A stretch of 64,000 nucleotides of DNA. Origin: Methylacidimicrobium fagopyrum. Its GTDB lineage: Bacteria > Verrucomicrobiota > Verrucomicrobiia > Limisphaerales > UBA11358. Of this stretch, positions 12,553-61,879 are shown piece after piece (within the stretch, counting starts at the first letter, position 1; the number at the start of each line of letters is the position of its first letter). Both the position numbers and the translations under genes were made by a program. The notes below the pieces were generated by a model. That model was not told where the DNA came from and made no database searches. It worked only from the letters and a program-made list of their open reading frames with translations. The DNA lies in NCBI GenBank assembly GCA_026225255.1, contig JAMFSJ010000018.1:2934-66933 (forward strand), read 5' to 3'.

Positions 12553-14040
12553 ATGTCACAGATCAAATTTGGCACGGATGGCTGGCGCGCGGTCATCGCG
12601 GAAGATTTCACCTTCGCCAATGTCGCCCGCGTCGCGCAGGCGACGGCCGATTTCTGGAAGTCGGAAACCTTGGATTCCAAGTCGCCCCTCTTCGGTCGCG
12701 CCTTGAAAGTGGTCATCGGCTACGACCGCCGCTTTTTGTCTGATCGGTTCGCGCAAATCACTGCCGAAGTTTTTGCCGGCAACGATTTCCAAGTCGTCCT
12801 CACCGACACGCCCACGCCCACGCCCTCCGTTTCCTTCGCGGTTAAAAACCTTGGGGCCGTGGGCGGCGTCATGATCACTGCCAGCCACAATCCGCCAATC
12901 TTCAACGGCTTTAAATTGAAGTCGCACTTCGGCGGTTCCAGTGGACCGGAAGATTGTCAGGCGGTGGAAAGCTTTCTGGATCGTAATCCGGTTCGTTCGC
13001 AACCGCTCGACGGAGCGCCGATCTCCCGATCGGCTCGAAATAATTCCGCCGGACCAATCAGGAAATCGGCGCTCCTCCGCCCGGTCACGGTCTCCGACAT
13101 CCGGCCCGCGCATTTCAAAGCCATTAAACGGCTCGTGGATTTCAAGCTCATCGCCCAATCCAAATTGCGCGTCGCGCATGATGCGTTGTTTGGCGTTGGC
13201 GCGGGTGTTTTTGAAACCTTGCTGGCCAATACTTCCTGCCACGTCACGACGCTTAACGGCGCGCACGATGTGATGTTCGGCGGCATTTGTCCGGAACCTG
13301 CGCCCAAAAATTATGCGCTCGGCGGTGCGCAGTTGCGGCGCAATCCCCACGCTATTTGTCTCGTGACCGACGGCGATTCCGACCGCATCGGCGCGATGGA
13401 CGGTCACGGCAACCCGCTGACCAACCAGCAAGTCATCGCGTTGCTGCTGCATCATCTCGTGCGCAATCGTGGCGAACGCGGGGTGGTGACAAAAACTTAC
13501 AACACCACCGCGATGGTGGACAAAATGTGCGCCGCGTGGAACCTGCCGCTGACGGAAGTCGGCATCGGGTTCCGTTTCATCGCGCCGGAATTGATGAAGC
13601 CCGGCGCGTTGTTTGGCGCGGAAGAAAGCGGTTCCGTCGGTTTCGTGAATCACATTCCCGAACGCGATGGATTGGCAGCGGGATTGTTCCTGCTCGAAAT
13701 GTTGGCGACGGAGAAAATTTCCGTCAATAAGATCTGGGCGAAGTTGGAAAAGGAATTTGGTCCGCATCGCTACGCCCGGTTCGATGCGCATTATCCCTTG
13801 GAGAAACGGGCTTCGCTCATGGCGTCGCTCAAAGCGAATCCGCCCAAAAAACTGCTGCGTTCGCCCTTGGTGAAAGTGGATGCCCGTGACGGCGTGAAGT
13901 TTATCGCCGCCGATTCCACGTGGCTCATGCTGCGCGGTTCCGGCACCGAGCCGGTGCTTCGCATTTACGCCGAGGCAAAATCGGATGCCGATGTGCAAAA
14001 GCTTTTGAAGCTTGGCCAATCGCTGCTGCGCACTCTCTGA
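12553..14040 (+). CDS. phosphoglucomutase/phosphomannomutase family protein
   Basis: 495 aa with the active-site loop TASHNP and the Mg loop DGDSDR. Confidence 0.85.
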   Translation: MSQIKFGTDGWRAVIAEDFTFANVARVAQATADFWKSETLDSKSPLFGRALKVVIGYDRRFLSDRFAQITAEVFAGNDFQVVLTDTPTPTPSVSFAVKNLGAVGGVMITASHNPPIFNGFKLKSHFGGSSGPEDCQAVESFLDRNPVRSQPLDGAPISRSARNNSAGPIRKSALLRPVTVSDIRPAHFKAIKRLVDFKLIAQSKLRVAHDALFGVGAGVFETLLANTSCHVTTLNGAHDVMFGGICPEPAPKNYALGGAQLRRNPHAICLVTDGDSDRIGAMDGHGNPLTNQQVIALLLHHLVRNRGERGVVTKTYNTTAMVDKMCAAWNLPLTEVGIGFRFIAPELMKPGALFGAEESGSVGFVNHIPERDGLAAGLFLLEMLATEKISVNKIWAKLEKEFGPHRYARFDAHYPLEKRASLMASLKANPPKKLLRSPLVKVDARDGVKFIAADSTWLMLRGSGTEPVLRIYAEAKSDADVQKLLKLGQSLLRTL

Positions 14041-14375
14041 TCGGCGAAAATGAAGCGGGGCGATGGCAGAATCGCCGCGCGACCCTCCCGCCCAAAAAAT
14101 AGCGGAACGAAATTTGGTCGAGCCGGAACCGGCTAATTTAGCTGTGAAGGCAGTTGCTGGCCTCCGGGCGGTCGTCGCGGTCAATGCTCGCCGGCGCGGG
14201 CGCAAAGTTCAACCAACCACCCAGTCACCCCCCGCCAATTCCAATAAAGCACTGGTTGCGACCGACCTCGAACTGGCGTTTTTTGTCCAGGTTCCGACCT
14301 CTTAAACCGGTCAATTACGTGATTTTGTCGCCTTTTTGGCTAAAAGAGCCGTTTTTCGAGGTTGTTTAACCATTT

Positions 14376-14627
14376 ATCAAGGTCATTAAGTCTCTAATCA
14401 AGGTCATTTAGAGACTTTGTCAGGTCATTTAAGCTCTCATCAAGGACATTAAACGTCTGATCAAGGACATTAAGCGGCTTTGCAGGGACATTTAGTCTCT
14501 GATCAAGGACATTCAGAGACTTTGCAAGGACTTTAAATCTTTGAGCAAGGACATTTAAGCTCTCATCAAGGTCATTAAGTGTCTGATCAAGGTCATTAAA
14601 TGACTTTGCAAGGTCATTAAATGAACC
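14376..14627. repeat. 12 contiguous 21-bp direct repeats (consensus about ATCAAGGWCATTAAGTCTCTG) with a 63-bp super-period
   Basis: Parsed by hand into exactly 12 x 21 bp. Each unit has a conserved 12-nt core and a more variable 9-nt tail. The array lies in the spacer between the phosphohexomutase gene and the lyase gene. Confidence 0.95.
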
Positions 14628-14642
14628 AAAAGGGAGGTAGGT
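14397..14642 (-). other. start-less open frame through the 21-bp array, encoding 11 heptads [KQE]-[STR]-[LF]-N-[DV]-L-[DA]
   Basis: This is the only one of the six frames without stops across the array. It is bounded by TGA (14643-14645, which is also the stop of ORF 14643..14963) and TAG (14394-14396). It contains no in-frame ATG, GTG or TTG. Its coding status is unresolved. Confidence 0.3.
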
Positions 14643-14796
14643 TCAGCGAACCAGCCGGTTGGCTGCCTCGTTTTGGTCGTCGCGCCTGATTTTACCGGCG
14701 CGACACCGGTGCCACTCGTGGCAATTTGAAAAGACGTCTTTAGCCTTCATCCCCAGTTCTGTGGATAGCGGCTGATCGTCGCGTGGATTAGATTCA

Positions 14797-17376
14797 TTGG
14801 ATTCCATGAGCTTTTTCGCACGCCCACTGAGTCGTATTGGTTTTGTTTTGGTTCTCGCCATGGTGCTGTTTTCGCTCCGCCTATGCGCCAACAACGCGGG
14901 CGGTTTTATTCCCGCCGCGACTACGCCGGTGACGACCGGGACGGAAACCTTCGTCACGCACACTGATCATTTTCTCGATAATGGAATTTTGCATGTTGCC
15001 CTTTCGCCCAATGGCAGCGTGGATTCAATGAAGTTTCTCAAACCTGGTTTGGCGGGCACCCCCAAGGTGAATGGCGTGGAAACGGTCAGTCAATCGGGTG
15101 TGAATTTCGGCAATCACACCGCGATTTATTATTATTGGTATCCCGATGGCAATGGCGATTGCGTTTACTCCAACACCATTGTTTCCAGCACGAATATTGA
15201 TATTGGGTATCTGCGTCCGTTCAGTCAAGCGAAGGGCGATCAAGTCATCGCGGACGTGGAATTGCATTACGTGCTGGGCAAGGGCAACACCGGTTTGTAT
15301 GCGTATTTGATCGTGCGACATCCAGCGAGTTATGCGAGTTTCGCGACGAACTTGAGCATCAGTTTCATCCAATGCCTTTGGCCGACGGCGCACGATAATA
15401 CGAATTTCCTCTGTGAAAATTCCTATGTGGACGAGGGCGTGCGTTACGGTTTGACGTTGAATGGCGTTTACCAAAAGCGCAATGGTTTGCAGCCGAATTT
15501 TTATGATAACTGGCATACGATCGCGGTGACGAACATCAATATTCCCAAGGAGGTGTTGCAAACGACGACGGGCGTTTTCAACGGCAGCACGAATGGGAAA
15601 TATTCTTACACGTTCGATTATCCCAAGTTGAGCACCTTTGGTATGGCGAGCGACCTGAACCAGATTGGTTTGTGGTATGTCGCCGGTGGCCATGAATATC
15701 AACAGAATGGTCCGACGGCGTGCGAATATTCCGGCGGCATCGGCGGGATCATCACGTTCGAGCCGCTCATGGCGCATTACGGCAACACGGGATTGAACGT
15801 CAGCAGCAATTCGGCGTTCACTAAAATTTATGGGCCGTGGTTGTTTTACATTAATAGCCAATCCAACGGCGCCGCGTGTTGGGCGGATTCGCAACAACAA
15901 GCCGTGGCCGAACAATTAGCGTGGCCTTACGCGTGGCTGACGAACAGCGCTTATCAATCGAAAGATCAACGCGCGAGCATTTCTGGGAAATTAGTGATCA
16001 ACGATCCCCTGCGGCCGTCGGCGAACGCAGCGGGCGCGTGGATCGGTCTCGCCGCGCCGGATGCGAATCTAGAAGTGGATCCGAACGACTGGCAATGGCA
16101 ATCGGACGGTTACCAATTTTGGACGCAGTGCGCGGCCGATGGTAGTTTCACGCTGCCACCGGTGACGACGTTTTCGCCCTACGGCACGAATGTGGCTTAT
16201 GAATTGTATGCCTATTGCGCGGGCACGAATGGTTCGGTCGGCCAATTTCAAACCGGGCCCCTTACGTTTACGTTTGCGCCCGGCACGGTGACGAATCTCG
16301 GCACCCTCACGTGGAACGTTCCGCATGCCGGTTCGAATGTGTTGTGGGAAATCGGTTATCCCGATCGCACGGCGGCGAAATTTCGGCATGGCGATGATTA
16401 TGCCGTGCCGGGTTTGTGGCTGAATTTTGCGAATGAATTTCCGAACCCGATGACTTACACCGTGGGTAGCAGCCGCCCGACGAACGATTGGAATTACGCG
16501 CAGACGGCTTACTTCACCAACGGCGTCGCGAACAACATGGTTTGGAATATAAACTTTAATATCCCCAAATTGCCCGTCAGCGGCAACGCCACGTTGACCA
16601 TTGCGTGGGCGGGCGCCTACAGGGCGGCCATCGCCTCGTATGTGAATAATCCCGGCCTGACTTCCGAGTTCAAAGATTTTTATCCAAACATTCCTTTTCC
16701 CAGCGGCGTAAATGCGGATTCGCTTATTAGACAAGGCATTCATGATAAATATGGCATTGATCATATTTCCATTCCCGTCAGCAAACTCGTTACGGGAACC
16801 AATATCATTACGCTCGTGCAACGTCGCGCGGTCGCGGCCACGGTCAGTTATGTGATGTATGATTATTTGGATTTCGAACTGCCCACCGCCCGGCCGCCCA
16901 GCGGTCTGACGGCGACCGCGGGCGACGGTAACGTGGCGTTAAGTTGGACGGCTTCGCCGGGTGCGACGGGCTACTATATTGCGCAATCCACCACCAACGG
17001 CGGGCCTTACAAAATCATCGGCGCCAATGTGAATAGCCTGTCGCTCACCAATACCGGTCTGTCCAACGGCACGAATTATTATTACGTCATCAGTGCGACC
17101 AATTCATTTGGGGTGAGTGATATTTCAACCCCGGCCAGCGCGCGGCCAACGTCCTCCGCTGTGCCGCAACTCGGGTTTAGTATTAACGCCAGCCAACTGA
17201 CTTTGAATTGGCCGGCGGATCACCTGGGCTGGAGTTTGCAGCTGCAGACGAATTCAGCCGGGCAGGGGCTGGGCACCCATTGGATCACGTTGTCAGGTTC
17301 AGCTACGAATAATCAGGCGGGCTTTCCGGTCAACGCTACGAACGGCAACGTGTTCTTTCGGCTGATTTATCCGTGA
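14797..17376 (+). CDS. secreted rhamnogalacturonan lyase-like protein (PL4-like) with an FN3 domain and a C-terminal beta-rich module
   Basis: 859 aa with a signal peptide. The blocks IYGPWLFYINS ... WPYAWL ... SGKLVINDP ... GAWIGLAAPD resemble plant and fungal PL4 lyases (from memory). It has an FN3-like segment (LTATAGDGNVALSWTASPGATGYYI) and a C-terminal tail that ends FFRLIYP. Confidence 0.7.
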   Translation: MDSMSFFARPLSRIGFVLVLAMVLFSLRLCANNAGGFIPAATTPVTTGTETFVTHTDHFLDNGILHVALSPNGSVDSMKFLKPGLAGTPKVNGVETVSQSGVNFGNHTAIYYYWYPDGNGDCVYSNTIVSSTNIDIGYLRPFSQAKGDQVIADVELHYVLGKGNTGLYAYLIVRHPASYASFATNLSISFIQCLWPTAHDNTNFLCENSYVDEGVRYGLTLNGVYQKRNGLQPNFYDNWHTIAVTNINIPKEVLQTTTGVFNGSTNGKYSYTFDYPKLSTFGMASDLNQIGLWYVAGGHEYQQNGPTACEYSGGIGGIITFEPLMAHYGNTGLNVSSNSAFTKIYGPWLFYINSQSNGAACWADSQQQAVAEQLAWPYAWLTNSAYQSKDQRASISGKLVINDPLRPSANAAGAWIGLAAPDANLEVDPNDWQWQSDGYQFWTQCAADGSFTLPPVTTFSPYGTNVAYELYAYCAGTNGSVGQFQTGPLTFTFAPGTVTNLGTLTWNVPHAGSNVLWEIGYPDRTAAKFRHGDDYAVPGLWLNFANEFPNPMTYTVGSSRPTNDWNYAQTAYFTNGVANNMVWNINFNIPKLPVSGNATLTIAWAGAYRAAIASYVNNPGLTSEFKDFYPNIPFPSGVNADSLIRQGIHDKYGIDHISIPVSKLVTGTNIITLVQRRAVAATVSYVMYDYLDFELPTARPPSGLTATAGDGNVALSWTASPGATGYYIAQSTTNGGPYKIIGANVNSLSLTNTGLSNGTNYYYVISATNSFGVSDISTPASARPTSSAVPQLGFSINASQLTLNWPADHLGWSLQLQTNSAGQGLGTHWITLSGSATNNQAGFPVNATNGNVFFRLIYP

Positions 17377-17456
17377 CCCAACGGGGCGGACAAATCAAAT
17401 GGCGGCCAACGTGGTTGTTACTTGGCGACGGGACTTTTCCCCGCTAACTTTTCGGC

Positions 17457-17846
17457 ATGATCAATCACGGTATTCTCAATCCGCAACTCCTCTCGCTCCT
17501 CGCCCGCGTGCGGCATACGAACGCGCTCGTGATTTCCGATCGCGGCTTTCCGTTCTGGCCGGGGATCGAAACGGTGGATGTCTCGGTGGTGGACGATTTG
17601 CCGACGGTGTTGCAACTCATCGCCGCCGTGCGCGCCAATCACACCTTTACGCAGGCGTATCAAGCGGAAGAATTTTTGAAAAATAATTCGGCGTCCACCC
17701 GTCAGAAATTTGCCGCCGCCTTGAAAGGCGTGCCGTTGACGTTCGAGCCGCATGTGAATTTCAAGCTGCGCGTGCCGCACGCCATCGGTTTGATCCGCAC
17801 CGGTGACACGACGCAATATGCCAACACGATTTTGATTTCCGGTTGA
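17457..17846 (+). CDS. fucU: RbsD/FucU family mutarotase (L-fucose mutarotase or D-ribose pyranase)
   Basis: 129 aa with MINHGILNPQLLSLLARVRHTNALVISDRGFP, typical of the family. Confidence 0.8.
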   Translation: MINHGILNPQLLSLLARVRHTNALVISDRGFPFWPGIETVDVSVVDDLPTVLQLIAAVRANHTFTQAYQAEEFLKNNSASTRQKFAAALKGVPLTFEPHVNFKLRVPHAIGLIRTGDTTQYANTILISG

Positions 17847-19408: not shown

Positions 19409-19828
19409 ATGCGTCAGTCATTTCACGAACTTACCCTCGCCACGCGCGGCCGCGGGTTGATTGATTTTACCCGCGACGTTGAAAAGTGGATTGCCGCCCA
19501 TCAATTTCGCGATGGCTTGCTCACGTTGCATTTGCGCCACACGTCGGCGTCGCTCTTGATTCAGGAAAATGCCGATCCCGATGTGCGCCGCGATCTGGAC
19601 GCCTTTTTCGCGCGGCTCGTGCGGGATGGCGATCCCCTGTTCATCCACAACGCCGAGGGCGACGATGACATGCCGGCCCACATCCGCACAGCGCTGACGG
19701 CGGTGAATCTTTCCATTCCGATTCACGGTGGCGAACTGGCGCTCGGCACGTGGCAGGGAATTTATTTGTGGGAACATCGCACGCATCCGCACTCGCGTCA
19801 CATCGCGCTGCATTTCATCGGGGAATAA
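19409..19828 (+). CDS. yjbQ: YjbQ/UPF0047 family protein (secondary thiamine-phosphate synthase-like)
   Basis: 139 aa with blocks LHLRHTSASLLIQENADPDV, DDMPAHIR and LGTWQGIYLWEHR. Confidence 0.9.
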   Translation: MRQSFHELTLATRGRGLIDFTRDVEKWIAAHQFRDGLLTLHLRHTSASLLIQENADPDVRRDLDAFFARLVRDGDPLFIHNAEGDDDMPAHIRTALTAVNLSIPIHGGELALGTWQGIYLWEHRTHPHSRHIALHFIGE

Positions 19829-20268
19829 ATCACCGATGAGGGGAGACTTTTTTGAGACGAGACTGGGGAAATTTAAATAAGGAAGGCAGGAAAGCAGGAA
19901 AATTCCTGAACTCTTGATTTCCTTATTCAAGTTGAAAGCTTGTCCTTGGCATTCTGGTATTTCCTCCGCCAAACCATCTCCGATGAGGGGAGACGGCTTT
20001 GAGACGAGACTGGGGAAAGTTAAATAAGGAAGGCAGGAAAGCAGGAAAATTCCTGAATTCCTGCTTTCTTTATTCAAATCAAAATTTTGTCCCGCGCATT
20101 TTGGTGTTTCCTCCGCCAAACATTCTCCGATGAGACGAGAGGGCTTTGAGCGGTGACTTGGGAAAGTAAAATAAGGAAGGCAGGAAATGAGAAATATTCC
20201 TGCTTTCCTGCCTTCCTTATTCAAATCAAAAGCTTGTCCCTGGCATTCTGGCTGTTCCTCCCCCAAAC
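19829..20268. repeat. three tandem 146-147-bp units (19829-19975, 19976-20121, 20122-20268), each with a long hairpin
   Basis: The units align by eye over their full length. In unit 3, AATAAGGAAGGCAGGAAA (20170-20187) pairs perfectly with TTTCCTGCCTTCCTTATT (20204-20221). Confidence 0.9.
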
Positions 20269-20359: not shown

Positions 20360-22144
20360 ATGAAACATTCGATCTTCAACGGTTCACTTCCAAAAATCGG
20401 CATTCGCCCGACGATTGACGGGCGCCTCGGTGGCGTTCGCGAATCGCTCGAAAAACAGACGATGGACATGGCCAAGTCCGCTGCAAAATTAATTTCATCC
20501 ACCCTGCGTTATCCCAACGGCGAGCCGGTCGAATGCGTCATTGCTGATACTTGTATCGGTGGCGTGGCCGAAGCGGCGGCGTGTGCGGAAAAATTTGCGC
20601 GCGCGGGCGTCGGCGTTTCGCTCACGGTCACGCCATGCTGGTGTTACGGCAGTGAAACAATGGACATGGATAAAACTTTGCCCAAAGCGGTCTGGGGTTT
20701 TAATGGCACGGAACGTCCGGGCGCCGTTTATCTCGCCGCGGTGCTGGCCGGTCATACGCAAAAAGGCATTCCGGCGTTCGGCATTTACGGTCATGAAGTG
20801 CAGGATGGGGATGACAAATCCATTCCGGCCGATGTGCAGGAAAAACTTCTCCGCTTTGCCCGCGCCGGTCTCGCGGTCGCGTTGATGCGCGGCAAATCTT
20901 ATCTCGGCATGGGCGGTGTTTCGATGGGCATCGCCGGTTCCATTGTGGATCAACCGTTCTTCGAGGAATATCTCGGGATGCGCGTCGAGACGGTGGACAT
21001 GACGGAGTTTCTGCGCCGCATCGACAAAGGTATTTTCGATCAAGCCGAATACAAAAAAGCACTCGTGTGGGTGAAAGAAAATTGTCCCGAAGGCAAAGAT
21101 TATAATTCACCCAAAACCAAACGTTCGCGCAAACAACTCAATAGTGAATGGGAAACGTCTGTCAAGATGGCGCTCATCGCGCGTGACTTGATGGTCGGCA
21201 ATCCGGAGCTGAAAAAAATGGGCTTCGGCGAAGAAGCGCACGGCCACAACGCCATCGCGTCCGGTTTTCAAGGTCAACGTCAATGGACGGACTATCAACC
21301 GAACGGCGATTTTCTTGAAGCGATCCTCACGACGTCGTTCGACTGGAATGGCATCCGCGCACCTTACATGGTCGCCACGGAAAACGATTGCCTCAACGGC
21401 GCGTCGATGTTGTTCGGTCATTTGCTCACGAACACCGCGCAGATTTTTGCCGATGTGCGCACGTATTGGAGTGCCGACGCGGTGAAACGCGTTTCCGGTC
21501 ACACGCTCGAAGGTCACGCGGCGGGTGGCATCTTGCATCTCATCAATTCCGGCCCGGCAACGCTCGACGGCACCGGCCAGCAAGAAAGCGACGGTCAACC
21601 GGCAATGAAACCGTTTTGGGAAATTTCCAAAACGGAAGCCAAAAAATGTCTCGGTGCGACAACATGGCATCCGTCCATCACGGAATATTTCCCGGGCGGC
21701 GGCTGGTCCACCCGTTTCCTCACGCGCGGCGGCATGCCCGTAACGATGTGTCGTTTGAACCTCGTAAAAGGTCTCGGCCCCGCGCTACAAATCGCCGAAG
21801 GTTACACCGTTGACCTGCCGGAAAATGTCCACGACGCGCTGGATCAACGCACGAACCCGACATGGCCGACCACATGGTTCGCGCCGAAGCTTACAGGGCA
21901 GGGTGCCTTCCGCGATGTCTACACGGTGATGAATAATTGGGGCGCGAACCACGGTTCCATCAGCTACGGCCACATTGGTGCGGACTTGATCGCGCTCGCA
22001 TCGTTGCTGCGGATTCCGGTTTACATGCATAACGTCGCGGCGGAAAAGGTGTTTCGTCCGAGCGCGTGGGCGGCGTTCGGCACGGCGGATTTGGAAAGCG
22101 CCGATTACCGGGCCTGCGCTAATTTTGGAGCGCTGTATGCGTGA
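20360..22144 (+). CDS. fucI: L-fucose isomerase
   Basis: 594 aa with [20 protein letters not shown]...[10 protein letters not shown]...[11 protein letters not shown], a typical FucI N-terminus. The length also fits. Confidence 0.93.
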
Positions 22145-61766: not shown

Positions 61767-61786
61767 TTTTAACCTTTTAAAAAAGT

Positions 61787-61879
61787 GTCAGGGTGACCAC
61801 GGCAGACGCAGAGCAAAGTGCCGTTGCTGCCTTCCGGCCCTGGCGGGGTTCGTAAGTCCACATTCCATGGGCCCTGACG
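61787..61879 (-). ncRNA. ffs: signal recognition particle RNA (small/4.5S type)
   Basis: The minus strand reads GUCAGGGCCCAUGG...CCGCCAGGGCCGGAAGGCAGCAACGG...CCGUGGUCACCCUGAC. It has the conserved domain IV (CAGG / GGAA tetraloop / AGCA) and a closing terminal helix. It sits in the conserved position upstream of dnaX-ybaB-recR. Confidence 0.75.

Follow-up and report, generated by a model that had tools for sequence, protein, structure and literature searches.

What is a tandem array of 21-bp direct repeats doing between two chromosomal genes of Methylacidimicrobium fagopyrum? The question is raised by positions 14376..14627 of the 64,000-nucleotide stretch of DNA that was analysed as a whole and is called the window below. 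The array is preceded by a phosphoglucomutase/phosphomannomutase gene (pgm, 12553..14040, plus strand, assigned by Pfam) and followed by the gene of a secreted PL4-type rhamnogalacturonan lyase (14806..17376, plus strand, assigned by Pfam and by the source names of homologues). The initial annotation, made from the letters of the sequence, left three readings in competition: (a) an iteron- or centromere-like protein-binding array, (b) a disrupted or recoded heptad-repeat gene and (c) a minisatellite. We tentatively prefer the last of them, in the form of a lineage-specific non-coding 21-bp minisatellite, as a reading that may well be right but falls somewhat short of being probable.

The array and its enlarged spacer

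Our own unit parse, a pairwise matrix and TRF all divide the array into the same 12 contiguous units that had been described before, with the consensus ATCAAGGWCATTAAGNNTCTN. TRF registered period 21, 11.8 copies, 69% matches and 0% indels over 14376-14624/14627, and the matrix gave a mean pairwise identity of 69%, also with zero indels. The GC content is 38% in the array versus 54% in the window. Periodicity at lag 21 reaches leftward beyond the 12 units, to about 14320-14340, and 2-3 decayed units can be recognized by it at the left edge (14313..14375), the nearest of which, unit 0 (14355-14375), agrees with the consensus at 12/21 positions. Finer regularities proposed for the array fared worse. 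The 63-bp super-period disappeared, since identity at lag 63 (0.70) hardly differs from that at lags 21 and 42 (0.68), and the similarity of half-units with a 10.5-bp phase was lost as well (0.34/0.32 at lags 10/11, not clearly above composition). The complementary tails do exist, units 1/2 forming a perfect 10-nt inverted repeat, but a special arrangement of them was not confirmed: dyad symmetry is the same as in column-shuffled or unit-permuted arrays (p 0.26-0.30), and the p-value of self-complementarity against column-permuted arrays is 0.13.

The length of the array and two stop codons discussed below, TGA and TAG, had been singled out for verification in the initial annotation. A Logan contig of run SRR18933205, which is an independent public assembly, is 100% identical to window positions 13485-17485, and copy number, TGA and TAG are therefore reproducible. 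This identical contig is the sole second sequence of the locus, so the array is known from one genotype, and the case for a minisatellite is built on that genotype and on the 64 kb searched for copies.

The spacer between pgm and the lyase gene (14041..14805) is enlarged to 765 bp and, according to locus comparison and ORF scores, contains no credible gene. The search for mobile-element ends or target duplications around it gave just 10-15-nt chance repeats, and outside the array it has no similarity to any of the fetched loci or to the remaining window. At least 13 relatives have the conserved arrangement rpe-pgm-RbsD/FucU, the gap being about 15-20 bp, so that the RbsD/FucU-family gene, located here at 17457..17846 (plus strand), directly follows pgm. 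Only one relative (L090) shares the order pgm-lyase-RbsD/FucU, and its spacer is about 96 bp long and has no array. The presence of the array in orthologous spacers, which had been proposed as a check, was not observed at any locus compared: regex, TRF, blastn and tblastn revealed neither an orthologous array nor 21-bp periodicity at 80 pgm loci or upstream of the approximately 30 lyase orthologues that are full-length (79 lyase loci had been fetched), and both are absent from the fetched contigs of the three nearest lyases (79–82% identical). The lyase itself forms a singleton protein cluster, with the nearest relative 82% identical; the exact-protein look-up returned one identical contig for the lyase and no record for RbsD/FucU and pgm. 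One can assume that the array originated by tandem duplication within a spacer which had expanded between pgm and the lyase gene, at a chromosomal position of Limisphaerales that appears to gain cargo repeatedly.

Local DNA structure was predicted by the Bolshoy-Trifonov wedge model, which we implemented ourselves. Of all 252-bp segments in the window, 14201-14452 came out with the strongest predicted curvature, its end-to-end/contour ratio being 0.34 versus the window mean of 0.93 and 0.85 for the array alone. Curvature, which had been suggested as a property of the array to be checked, is thus predicted beside it, in the T-tracts of the left flank, where phased T/A-tract DNA (14280..14375) adjoins the repeats. 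On the other side lies the element CCTTCATCCCCAGTTCTGTGGATAGCGGC (14745..14773, plus strand). Orthologues of the PL4 lyase have it conserved upstream, at a distance of approximately 30-60 nt, and it is therefore probably a component of the promoter, operator or leader of the lyase gene itself. The element is situated downstream of the array, which occupies the region 120-430 bp upstream of it, and the lyase ATG (14806) is 178 bp from the array end, in agreement with the roughly 170 bp given earlier. Motifs of sigma-54, ECF and IHF-like type, inspected by eye, gave no convincing match. As a minisatellite, the array would amount to some 250 bp of AT-rich sequence placed, along with the curved T-tracts, between the end of pgm and the conserved promoter-proximal element of the lyase gene; it would have no dedicated sequence-specific partner, and any effect would be passive.

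The minus-strand heptad frame

Reading (b) stems from a minus-strand frame of 100 codons (14642..14343), translated as TYLPFGSFNDLAKSFNDLD...KSLNDLD*RLNDLDKWLNNLEKRLF* with the pattern x-x-[L/F]-N-[D/V]-L-x. At its 5' side the frame is closed by an in-frame TGA (14643-14645), which is also the stop of ORF 14643..14963; it is interrupted by a TAG at 14394-14396 and ends with a TAG at 14343-14345. ATG, GTG and TTG are not represented among its codons (two CTG are the only near-cognates), while the other five frames over the array contain from 5 to 22 stops each. The earlier description of this frame, as open, startless, entered through TGA and broken by one TAG amid five frames littered with stops, is therefore accurate. 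Its openness, in turn, is expected from the base composition of the unit: 77% of column-permuted arrays retain a frame with no more than one stop, and the single stop observed compares with 1.69 expected on column shuffling.

Codon usage is foreign. The frame scores −0.39, against a mean of +0.44 (sd 0.13) for the real genes of the window, none of whose 81-codon in-frame pieces scores as low, and CTT makes up 13 of its 19 Leu codons compared with 6% of Leu codons genome-wide. The heptad peptide gave zero matches in a word-indexed protein search and nothing above gathering score in Pfam, and exhaustive HMMER comparison with 1.8 billion representatives returned nothing but generic coiled coils and ORFs made of perfect 7-residue repeats, several of these matches probably being repeat-derived ORFs. 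Two properties of a coiled-coil gene are nevertheless present in the frame, which lacks a start codon, continuity, host codon usage and specific homologues. Hydrophobic residues occupy 92% of heptad positions 3 and 6 and 10% of the others, as in an a/d pattern, and AF2 predicts helices at residues 5-50 and 55-81 with pLDDT 78. An open frame combined with so clean a pattern of hydrophobics appeared in 4.6% of column-permuted arrays.

Even if translation started at a non-canonical codon, or at the ATG 14750-14748, which lies in the spacer in frame upstream of TGA, a present-day coiled-coil protein of about 90-120 aa seems extremely improbable to us. Heptad pattern, helical prediction and the fact that neither TGA nor TAG is an artefact of assembly speak for it. 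Its codons, on the other hand, are far from those of host genes, homologues are absent and two stops have to be read through, while the 35 codons upstream, with a score of −0.23, look non-coding and coincide in part with the conserved lyase element. Other genes of the window have ordinary stops and full-length Pfam matches, which gives no hint of recoding across the genome. A working or recoded current gene is consequently disfavoured by start, TAG, codons, homologues and expected openness, and the array is probably non-coding; what may survive of reading (b) is a fossil.

Such a fossil would be a heptad coiled-coil gene from a donor with lower GC content, which has lost its start and 5' part and is decaying, the TAG being one sign of this. 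We regard it as unlikely, although worth serious consideration. It would account for the single stop, which sets this frame apart from the other five, and for the hydrophobic residues at positions 3 and 6 (p about 0.05), for the lack of indels, owing to which the frame is preserved, and for the helices predicted by AF2. Most changes in unit 0 (6/9) fall on third codon positions, so that it still reads KWLNNLE (our own count, roughly p 0.05), and real genes with very similar heptads do exist: RVNDLAKRVNDLAKRLNDLTE in a 311-aa coiled-coil ORF (L250) and LEQRINVLEQSANVPEQSINDLE in a 377-aa protein (L194). Against this stand the absence of an N-terminal remnant, as the frame upstream looks non-coding (ORF 14643..14963 has a codon score of −0.17 and no Pfam matches), the absence of a specific homologue among the 1.8 billion representatives and of such a gene at this site in any relative, and a number of stops that is not below chance. 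For the minisatellite, the coiled-coil-like frame would be a by-product of unit base composition, or at most a fossil.

A more general caution follows from these permutations: a 21-bp repeat usually leaves one frame open, and in approximately one case out of 20 this frame also resembles a coiled coil. Since coiled-coil-like frames open by chance, repeat-derived “heptad proteins” in metagenome catalogues deserve suspicion.

Conserved columns and the search for a partner

The columns of the unit are strongly bimodal. Twelve of them show 0-2 deviations each and the other nine 4-8, which gives a variance of 6.78 versus 2.0 expected (p < 5e-5). Neutral decay should spread changes evenly, and some constraint, present or past, is therefore implied; accordingly, constraint or a coding past of the array is possible. 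Conservation is concentrated in a core of 12-14 nt, (A/T)(T/G)CAAGG(T/A)CATT-A...CT, which is kept at all codon positions, while the 9-nt spacer is saturated. Among synonymous third positions 2/36 were changed in conserved codons versus 11/24 in variable ones (Fisher p 3e-4). Bimodal columns are also seen in repeat proteins with variable surface positions, as a fossil gene would have it, but third positions that are nearly invariant in conserved codons are not predicted by protein selection alone.

Several observations fit poorly with a minisatellite. Its units have diverged to 69% identity, yet the 21-bp register is perfect across 252 bp; the columns are bimodal, and an open frame with the a/d pattern is found in just 4.6% of permutations.

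Reading (a) would make these columns a set of 12 putative sites two helical turns apart, the cooperative binding of a protein to which modulates lyase transcription or local DNA structure. The repeats are contiguous and direct, fall in the range of approximately 17-22 bp and have a conserved core, as binding arrays do. Their period is intact without indels despite 31% divergence, the core is kept irrespective of codon position next to a saturated spacer, and the array adjoins strongly curved DNA at 120-430 bp upstream of the lyase element. However, this reading looks doubtful to us, and we give it a minor chance. No curvature is predicted for the array itself, which also has no 10-11-bp half-site repeat; 12 sites per promoter would be unusual; neighbouring genes (pgm, lyase, RbsD/FucU and a TPR protein) include no regulator, rep or par gene. 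Lyase orthologues have no array, and it is therefore not a part of the lyase's conserved control. Not one single-copy site exists elsewhere in the 64 kb: with up to 2 mismatches the core gave 16 matches versus 2.6 expected (0/100 shuffles reach 16), of which 12 are the units themselves, all on the plus strand, and the 4 outside are at chance level; no further copy of the array motif was found in the rest of the window. What stands of reading (a) is thus the two-helical-turn period and the bimodal conservation, while the curvature beside the array, the confinement of the motif to it and the orthologues lacking it speak against. A bolder version, in which a putative Verrucomicrobial protein cooperatively binds the 12 phased sites of an iteron-like chromosomal array and, together with the curved DNA, silences or insulates a recently acquired lyase gene, appears quite improbable.

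The plus strand may alternatively produce a structured or protein-titrating RNA with 12 CA(A/G)GG(A/U)CAUU motifs, like the CsrB/RsmZ sponges, or form an insulator or terminator hairpin between pgm and the lyase gene; we consider this very unlikely. It is known that the SELEX consensus core of CsrA is CARGGA, to which CAAGGA of six units conforms. Unit pairs 1/2 and 6/7 are able to put the core into a hairpin loop, weak terminator-like hairpins flank the array (14337-14361 and 14652-14675), and the MFE of its RNA is −103.7 kcal/mol (z = −5.75). The z-score is, however, equal on both strands and for the most part reflects what tandem arrays have in common: with column-permuted arrays as the reference, p is 0.02 for MFE, and self-complementarity, as noted, does not stand out. 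The other half of the units has GGU instead of GGA, most motifs are paired in the MFE structure, where one apical loop exposes GGA, and no promoter-like site for such RNA was found. In Rfam the array gave chance matches only at E up to 10, and the sole match at gathering threshold was SRP RNA elsewhere in the window. A giant hairpin, or dyad symmetry as a special feature, was likewise rejected, being mostly generic to the unit and to the background of tandem arrays.

Relatives of the array were also sought by scanning for the core at 21-bp intervals. The scans picked up numerous 21-bp arrays in genomes and metagenomes, as well as 5 viral contigs, but a common family was rejected: the core gave 49 genome loci and the reversed-core control 54, and with a PWM of tails only the scanned loci reached at most +4.6 with a median of −8.3 for other loci, whereas the window's own units scored +7.5 in leave-one-out mode. 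Comparison of the array with plasmids (BLAST) and viral contigs yielded nothing beyond chance, and no description of such arrays was found in the literature. The statement of the initial annotation that no described element matches thus agrees with the Rfam and protein profile searches, and on sequence comparison the array is an orphan without ties to any known element.

As it stands, this orphan tandem repeat of one uncultured Verrucomicrobium genome is of little importance. If bimodal conservation did reflect protein binding, it would be a rare chromosomal iteron-like array, and one from a phylum in which gene regulation has hardly been studied.

Comparison with known systems

Plasmid iterons and centromere arrays, such as the 22-bp iterons of R6K, sopC of F (12 x 43 bp) and parC of R1 (10 x 11 bp), resemble the array in being AT-rich and in having about a dozen contiguous direct repeats of approximately two helical turns, each made up of a conserved core and a spacer that varies. 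The array differs from them by its location among chromosomal housekeeping and CAZyme genes in conserved gene order, with no adjacent rep, par or ori-type genes and no replication-origin context, no similarity to plasmids and no noticed cluster of DnaA boxes. The heptad genes mentioned above (RVNDLAK in the L250 ORF, LEQRINVLEQS in the GYF-like protein of L194) share with it the pattern x-x-[LIV]-N-[DV]-L-x, the 21-bp period and predicted helicity, but they are long ORFs with starts and non-repeat domains, while the frame of the array is startless, has a stop inside and foreign codons, and is flanked by no domain. CsrB/RsmZ sponge sRNAs similarly contain many CA-GGA-type motifs, some of which are able to sit in loops; the strict 21-nt spacing of the array, GGU in half of its units, the lack of an Rfam match or evident promoter and a structure hardly above tandem-repeat background set it apart.

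Closer in appearance are intergenic 21-bp arrays of Verrucomicrobiota MAGs, ELA148 (L171, L180, L197) and bins.134 (L165, L174, L199, L201), which contain CAAGGTCATT and in ELA148 share the AT-richness of our array (GC 0.35-0.39, compared with 0.58 for the genome). They were, however, found via the core itself, their tails are unconvincing against the PWM of the window, and each genome has them on several contigs, in contrast to the single copy seen in our 64-kb window.

Bacterial intergenic VNTR loci, which are the basis of MLVA typing, usually have units more than 90% identical and strain-variable copy number, and here the array departs from them, as its 69% identity does not suggest recent slippage and its columns are bimodal. 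As a description, reading (c) fits it best. Like VNTR minisatellites, it consists of head-to-tail units within the 10-100-bp range in non-coding intergenic DNA, is confined to one lineage without a partner gene and carries decayed units at its edge.

Extent of the array and its position between pgm and the lyase gene

The array is real, unusual-looking and an orphan. Tandem Repeats Finder delimited a period-21 tract at 14376–14624 (11.8 copies, 69% matches, no indels), and cutting 14376–14627 into consecutive 21-mers reproduced exactly the twelve units listed in the initial annotation. With at most 2 mismatches their core TCAAGGWCATTWA was registered 12 times on the plus strand within the array and at chance level in the rest of the 64 kb (in total 16 occurrences versus 2.6 expected). 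GC content is 38% in the array versus 54% in the window. Identity at lag 21 climbs from ~14320 and drops off beyond ~14610, so the array has two or three decayed units at its left and a fairly sharp right edge. An independently assembled contig (Logan, run SRR18933205) coincides with window 13485–17485 at all 4001 bases; thus, neither the copy number nor the two in-frame stops discussed below are artefacts of one assembly. Finer regularities ascribed to the array earlier were not reproduced: identity at lag 63 (0.70) hardly differs from that at lags 21 and 42 (0.68), which leaves no 63-bp super-period, and the supposed similarity of unit halves gave an identity of only 0.34 at lag 10 and 0.32 at lag 11. 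The tails of units 1 and 2 do form a perfect inverted repeat of 10 nt, but a special arrangement of complementary tails was not confirmed, since self-complementarity was equal in column-shuffled and unit-permuted arrays (p 0.26–0.30).

The host, a Verrucomicrobium not yet cultured, belongs to subdivision 3 (Limisphaerales); its phosphoglucomutase gene (pgm) has a full-length best identity of 84% among species representatives and 91% to one partial sequence. The array is neighboured by pgm (12553–14040), the gene of a secreted PL4 rhamnogalacturonan lyase (14806–17376) and the RbsD/FucU gene (17457–17846). Comparison of the pgm–RbsD/FucU junction (14041–17456) with fetched loci L003, L006, L024, L026, L028, L029 and L090 characterized it as a cargo site whose content varies within Limisphaerales. 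Nothing is inserted there in at least 13 relatives, in which RbsD/FucU follows pgm after ~15–20 bp; other lineages have at this site a PL4 lyase, a protein of 325 aa, or 4.6 kb of inserted DNA encoding a secreted protein of 1054 aa. In L090, a more distant relative, the order pgm–lyase–RbsD/FucU is the same, but the pgm–lyase spacer is ~96 bp long and free of repeats, versus 765 bp in the window. The extra DNA resembles neither the fetched loci nor the rest of the window, and gene-like codon usage was found in none of the spacer's ORFs.

The lyase orthologues all have a common upstream element with consensus CCAnTTCTGTGGATGGCnGC, which begins ~45–60 nt before the start codon and lies downstream of the array in the window (14745–14773). 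It was found upstream of lyase genes in L086, L088, L089, L092, L097, L026, L028, L335, L336 and L337, is kept even before lyases only 31% identical, and may be a promoter, operator or leader element. Neither a tandem repeat nor an AT-rich island was present upstream of the lyase orthologues examined, including the nearest ones (79–82% identity); therefore the array is young or lineage-specific and lies outside the conserved control region of the lyase.

A second intergenic tandem repeat that precedes a sugar-catabolism gene is located at 19813–20268, directly upstream of the L-fucose isomerase gene (20360–22144). Here a unit of 147 bp is repeated in tandem three times; the copies are 77–84% identical to the reference copy, and each has a ~55-nt palindrome (AATAAGGAAGGCAGGAAA...TTTCCTGCCTTCCTTATT). 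The 282-aa ORF spanning these copies is without a Pfam match and probably not a real gene.

Coding potential of the heptad frame

The coiled-coil-like minus-strand frame (14642..14343, 100 codons) reads as initially described, with TGA at 14643–14645 and TAG at 14394–14396, after which it continues through RLNDLDKWLNNLEKRLF to a further stop. ATG, GTG and TTG are all absent from its 100 codons, and the remaining five frames contain 5–22 stops. That a recoded gene is still alive here is extremely unlikely: the start codon is missing, the frame is broken by a stop, and scoring of its codons against the genes of the window itself gave −0.39, far below that of in-frame 81-codon pieces of real genes (mean +0.44, sd 0.13, none as low), the mean for wrong frames being −0.26. 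CTT accounts for 13 of 19 Leu codons versus 6% in the genome; AGA, GCA, TCA, TCT and CTA, found in this frame, are likewise genomically rare. Specific relatives of the peptide were not found either: a word-indexed search gave no match among 5.8 billion clusters, an exhaustive search with HMMER through 1.8 billion representatives gave 80 matches, which were generic coiled coils or perfect 7-residue-repeat ORFs (e.g. QSLNKLA, ERLNSLD), and Pfam yielded coiled-coil families only, all sub-threshold.

Openness of the frame is not in itself evidence for coding, since one stop was observed versus a mean of 1.69 after within-column base shuffling (p 0.42) and 77% of column-permuted arrays retained a frame containing no more than one stop. 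An open frame combined with a clean a/d hydrophobic pattern appeared, however, in just 4.6% of permuted arrays, which favors a coding past, as do the 21-bp register free of indels and the decayed unit 0 (14355–14375), whose changes relative to the consensus are concentrated at third codon positions, its translation still being KWLNNLE. Nearly identical heptads are carried by real genes in L250 and L194, and the two helices predicted by AlphaFold2 are compatible with coding, though non-discriminating. The array is rather unlikely to be a fossil heptad-repeat gene.

Possible nucleotide-level constraint, folding and curvature

Conservation of columns is strongly bimodal, the 21 successive columns having 4, 5, 1, 1, 1, 0, 0, 6, 0, 1, 0, 0, 5, 0, 6, 6, 5, 5, 2, 1 and 8 deviations from the consensus. 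Their variance is 6.78 versus 2.0 under even spread (p < 5e-5), and third positions of the minus frame are changed in 2/36 cases for conserved codons (AAT, GWC, CTT) versus 11/24 for variable ones (Fisher p 3e-4), both p-values being optimistic because the units are related by descent. This contrast is not predicted by protein-level selection alone and fits a nucleic-acid motif (A/T)(T/G)CAAGG(T/A)CATT-A plus a free spacer; a concertedly evolving repeat protein with variable positions would also fit. That the units serve as protein-binding sites is unlikely.

For either strand the predicted fold is a long, imperfect hairpin with units 6/7 at its centre (z ~ −5.8 versus dinucleotide shuffles), which is only marginally unusual against column-permuted arrays (MFE p 0.02, self-complementarity p 0.13). 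CAAGGA, which resembles a CsrA site, occurs in 6/12 units, but the other six have GGU, the fold leaves the majority of motifs base-paired, and the Rfam search gave no match for the array, so that an RNA element is very unlikely. Elsewhere in the window a bacterial small SRP RNA is encoded on the minus strand at 61783–61879 (RF00169, 64.7 bits).

Curvature of the array was not supported by wedge-model calculations (in an implementation of our own, with phased A-tracts as a sanity check), which predict it to be near-straight. Among 252-bp segments of the window, the strongest curvature is predicted at 14201–14452 (core ~14280–14375), where phased T/A tracts give an end-to-end/contour ratio of 0.34 versus a mean of 0.93 over 64 kb. 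It adjoins the array at left, overlapping its decayed edge. Directly after the pgm stop a GC-rich hairpin was noticed by eye at 14055–14080 (9/10 pairs); its plus strand lacks a T-run and its minus strand continues with TTCATTTT. It could terminate transcription arriving from the array side.

Comparison with other 21-bp repeats

Two cores 21 bp apart were found at 49 loci in genomes, at least 120 in metagenomes and in 5 viral contigs; many of those in genomes and metagenomes are 21-bp arrays. Some lie within real genes and are read in differing frames (NDL, MTL or QGH); others are intergenic, on several contigs per MAG (Verrucomicrobiota MAGs ELA148 and bins.134). A wider family was rejected, since the reversed-core control scan gave 54 loci, which makes this result a general 21-bp-repeat background, and since tail scores over the 11 positions not set by the search reached at most +4.6 (median −8.3) versus +7.5, leave-one-out, for the window's own units. 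From these comparisons we conclude that the array lacks demonstrable relatives.

A dispersed structured element in ELA148 (L171, L180, L197) and in related metagenome contigs L240, L261, L284, L285, L293 and L323 has 2–4 units (A/G)A(T/A)CAAGGTCATT(C/G)C-TCA followed by 5–11 units AATTAGTTAATTCCGTCAC; its copy number varies among contigs, several of the arrays have no open frame, and the arrays checked (L171, L197, L240, L261, L284) have GC of 35–39% versus 50–59% in their contigs. In bins.134 the 21-mer CCGCCAAGGTCATTTCCGCAA forms four intergenic arrays of 4.5–23 copies (L165, L174, L199, L201) with the GC of the genome, i.e. a dispersed minisatellite family. Another AT-rich 21-bp array, common to two metagenomes, has 16.2 copies in one and 17.2 in the other (L253, 417–797; L278, 273–674); it is open from an ATG, with translation AEQLTLIVERLTLI, and the one-unit difference is an in-frame variation of copy number. 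In another subdivision-3 MAG a PL4 lyase orthologue of 1603 aa is directly followed by a decayed 21-bp-periodic tract (L097, 8880–9290) with AATGACTTTGCGA and GCAAAGTCATTTTGCAAG among its units; several frames of this tract are open, none convincingly coding.

It is best supported that the array of the window is neither a functioning gene nor a member of any described element. The leading explanation, which copes least well with the bimodal pattern of conservation and the unbroken register, is tentative and somewhat short of probable: it regards the array as a non-coding minisatellite that is specific to the lineage and acts at most as a passive spacer.
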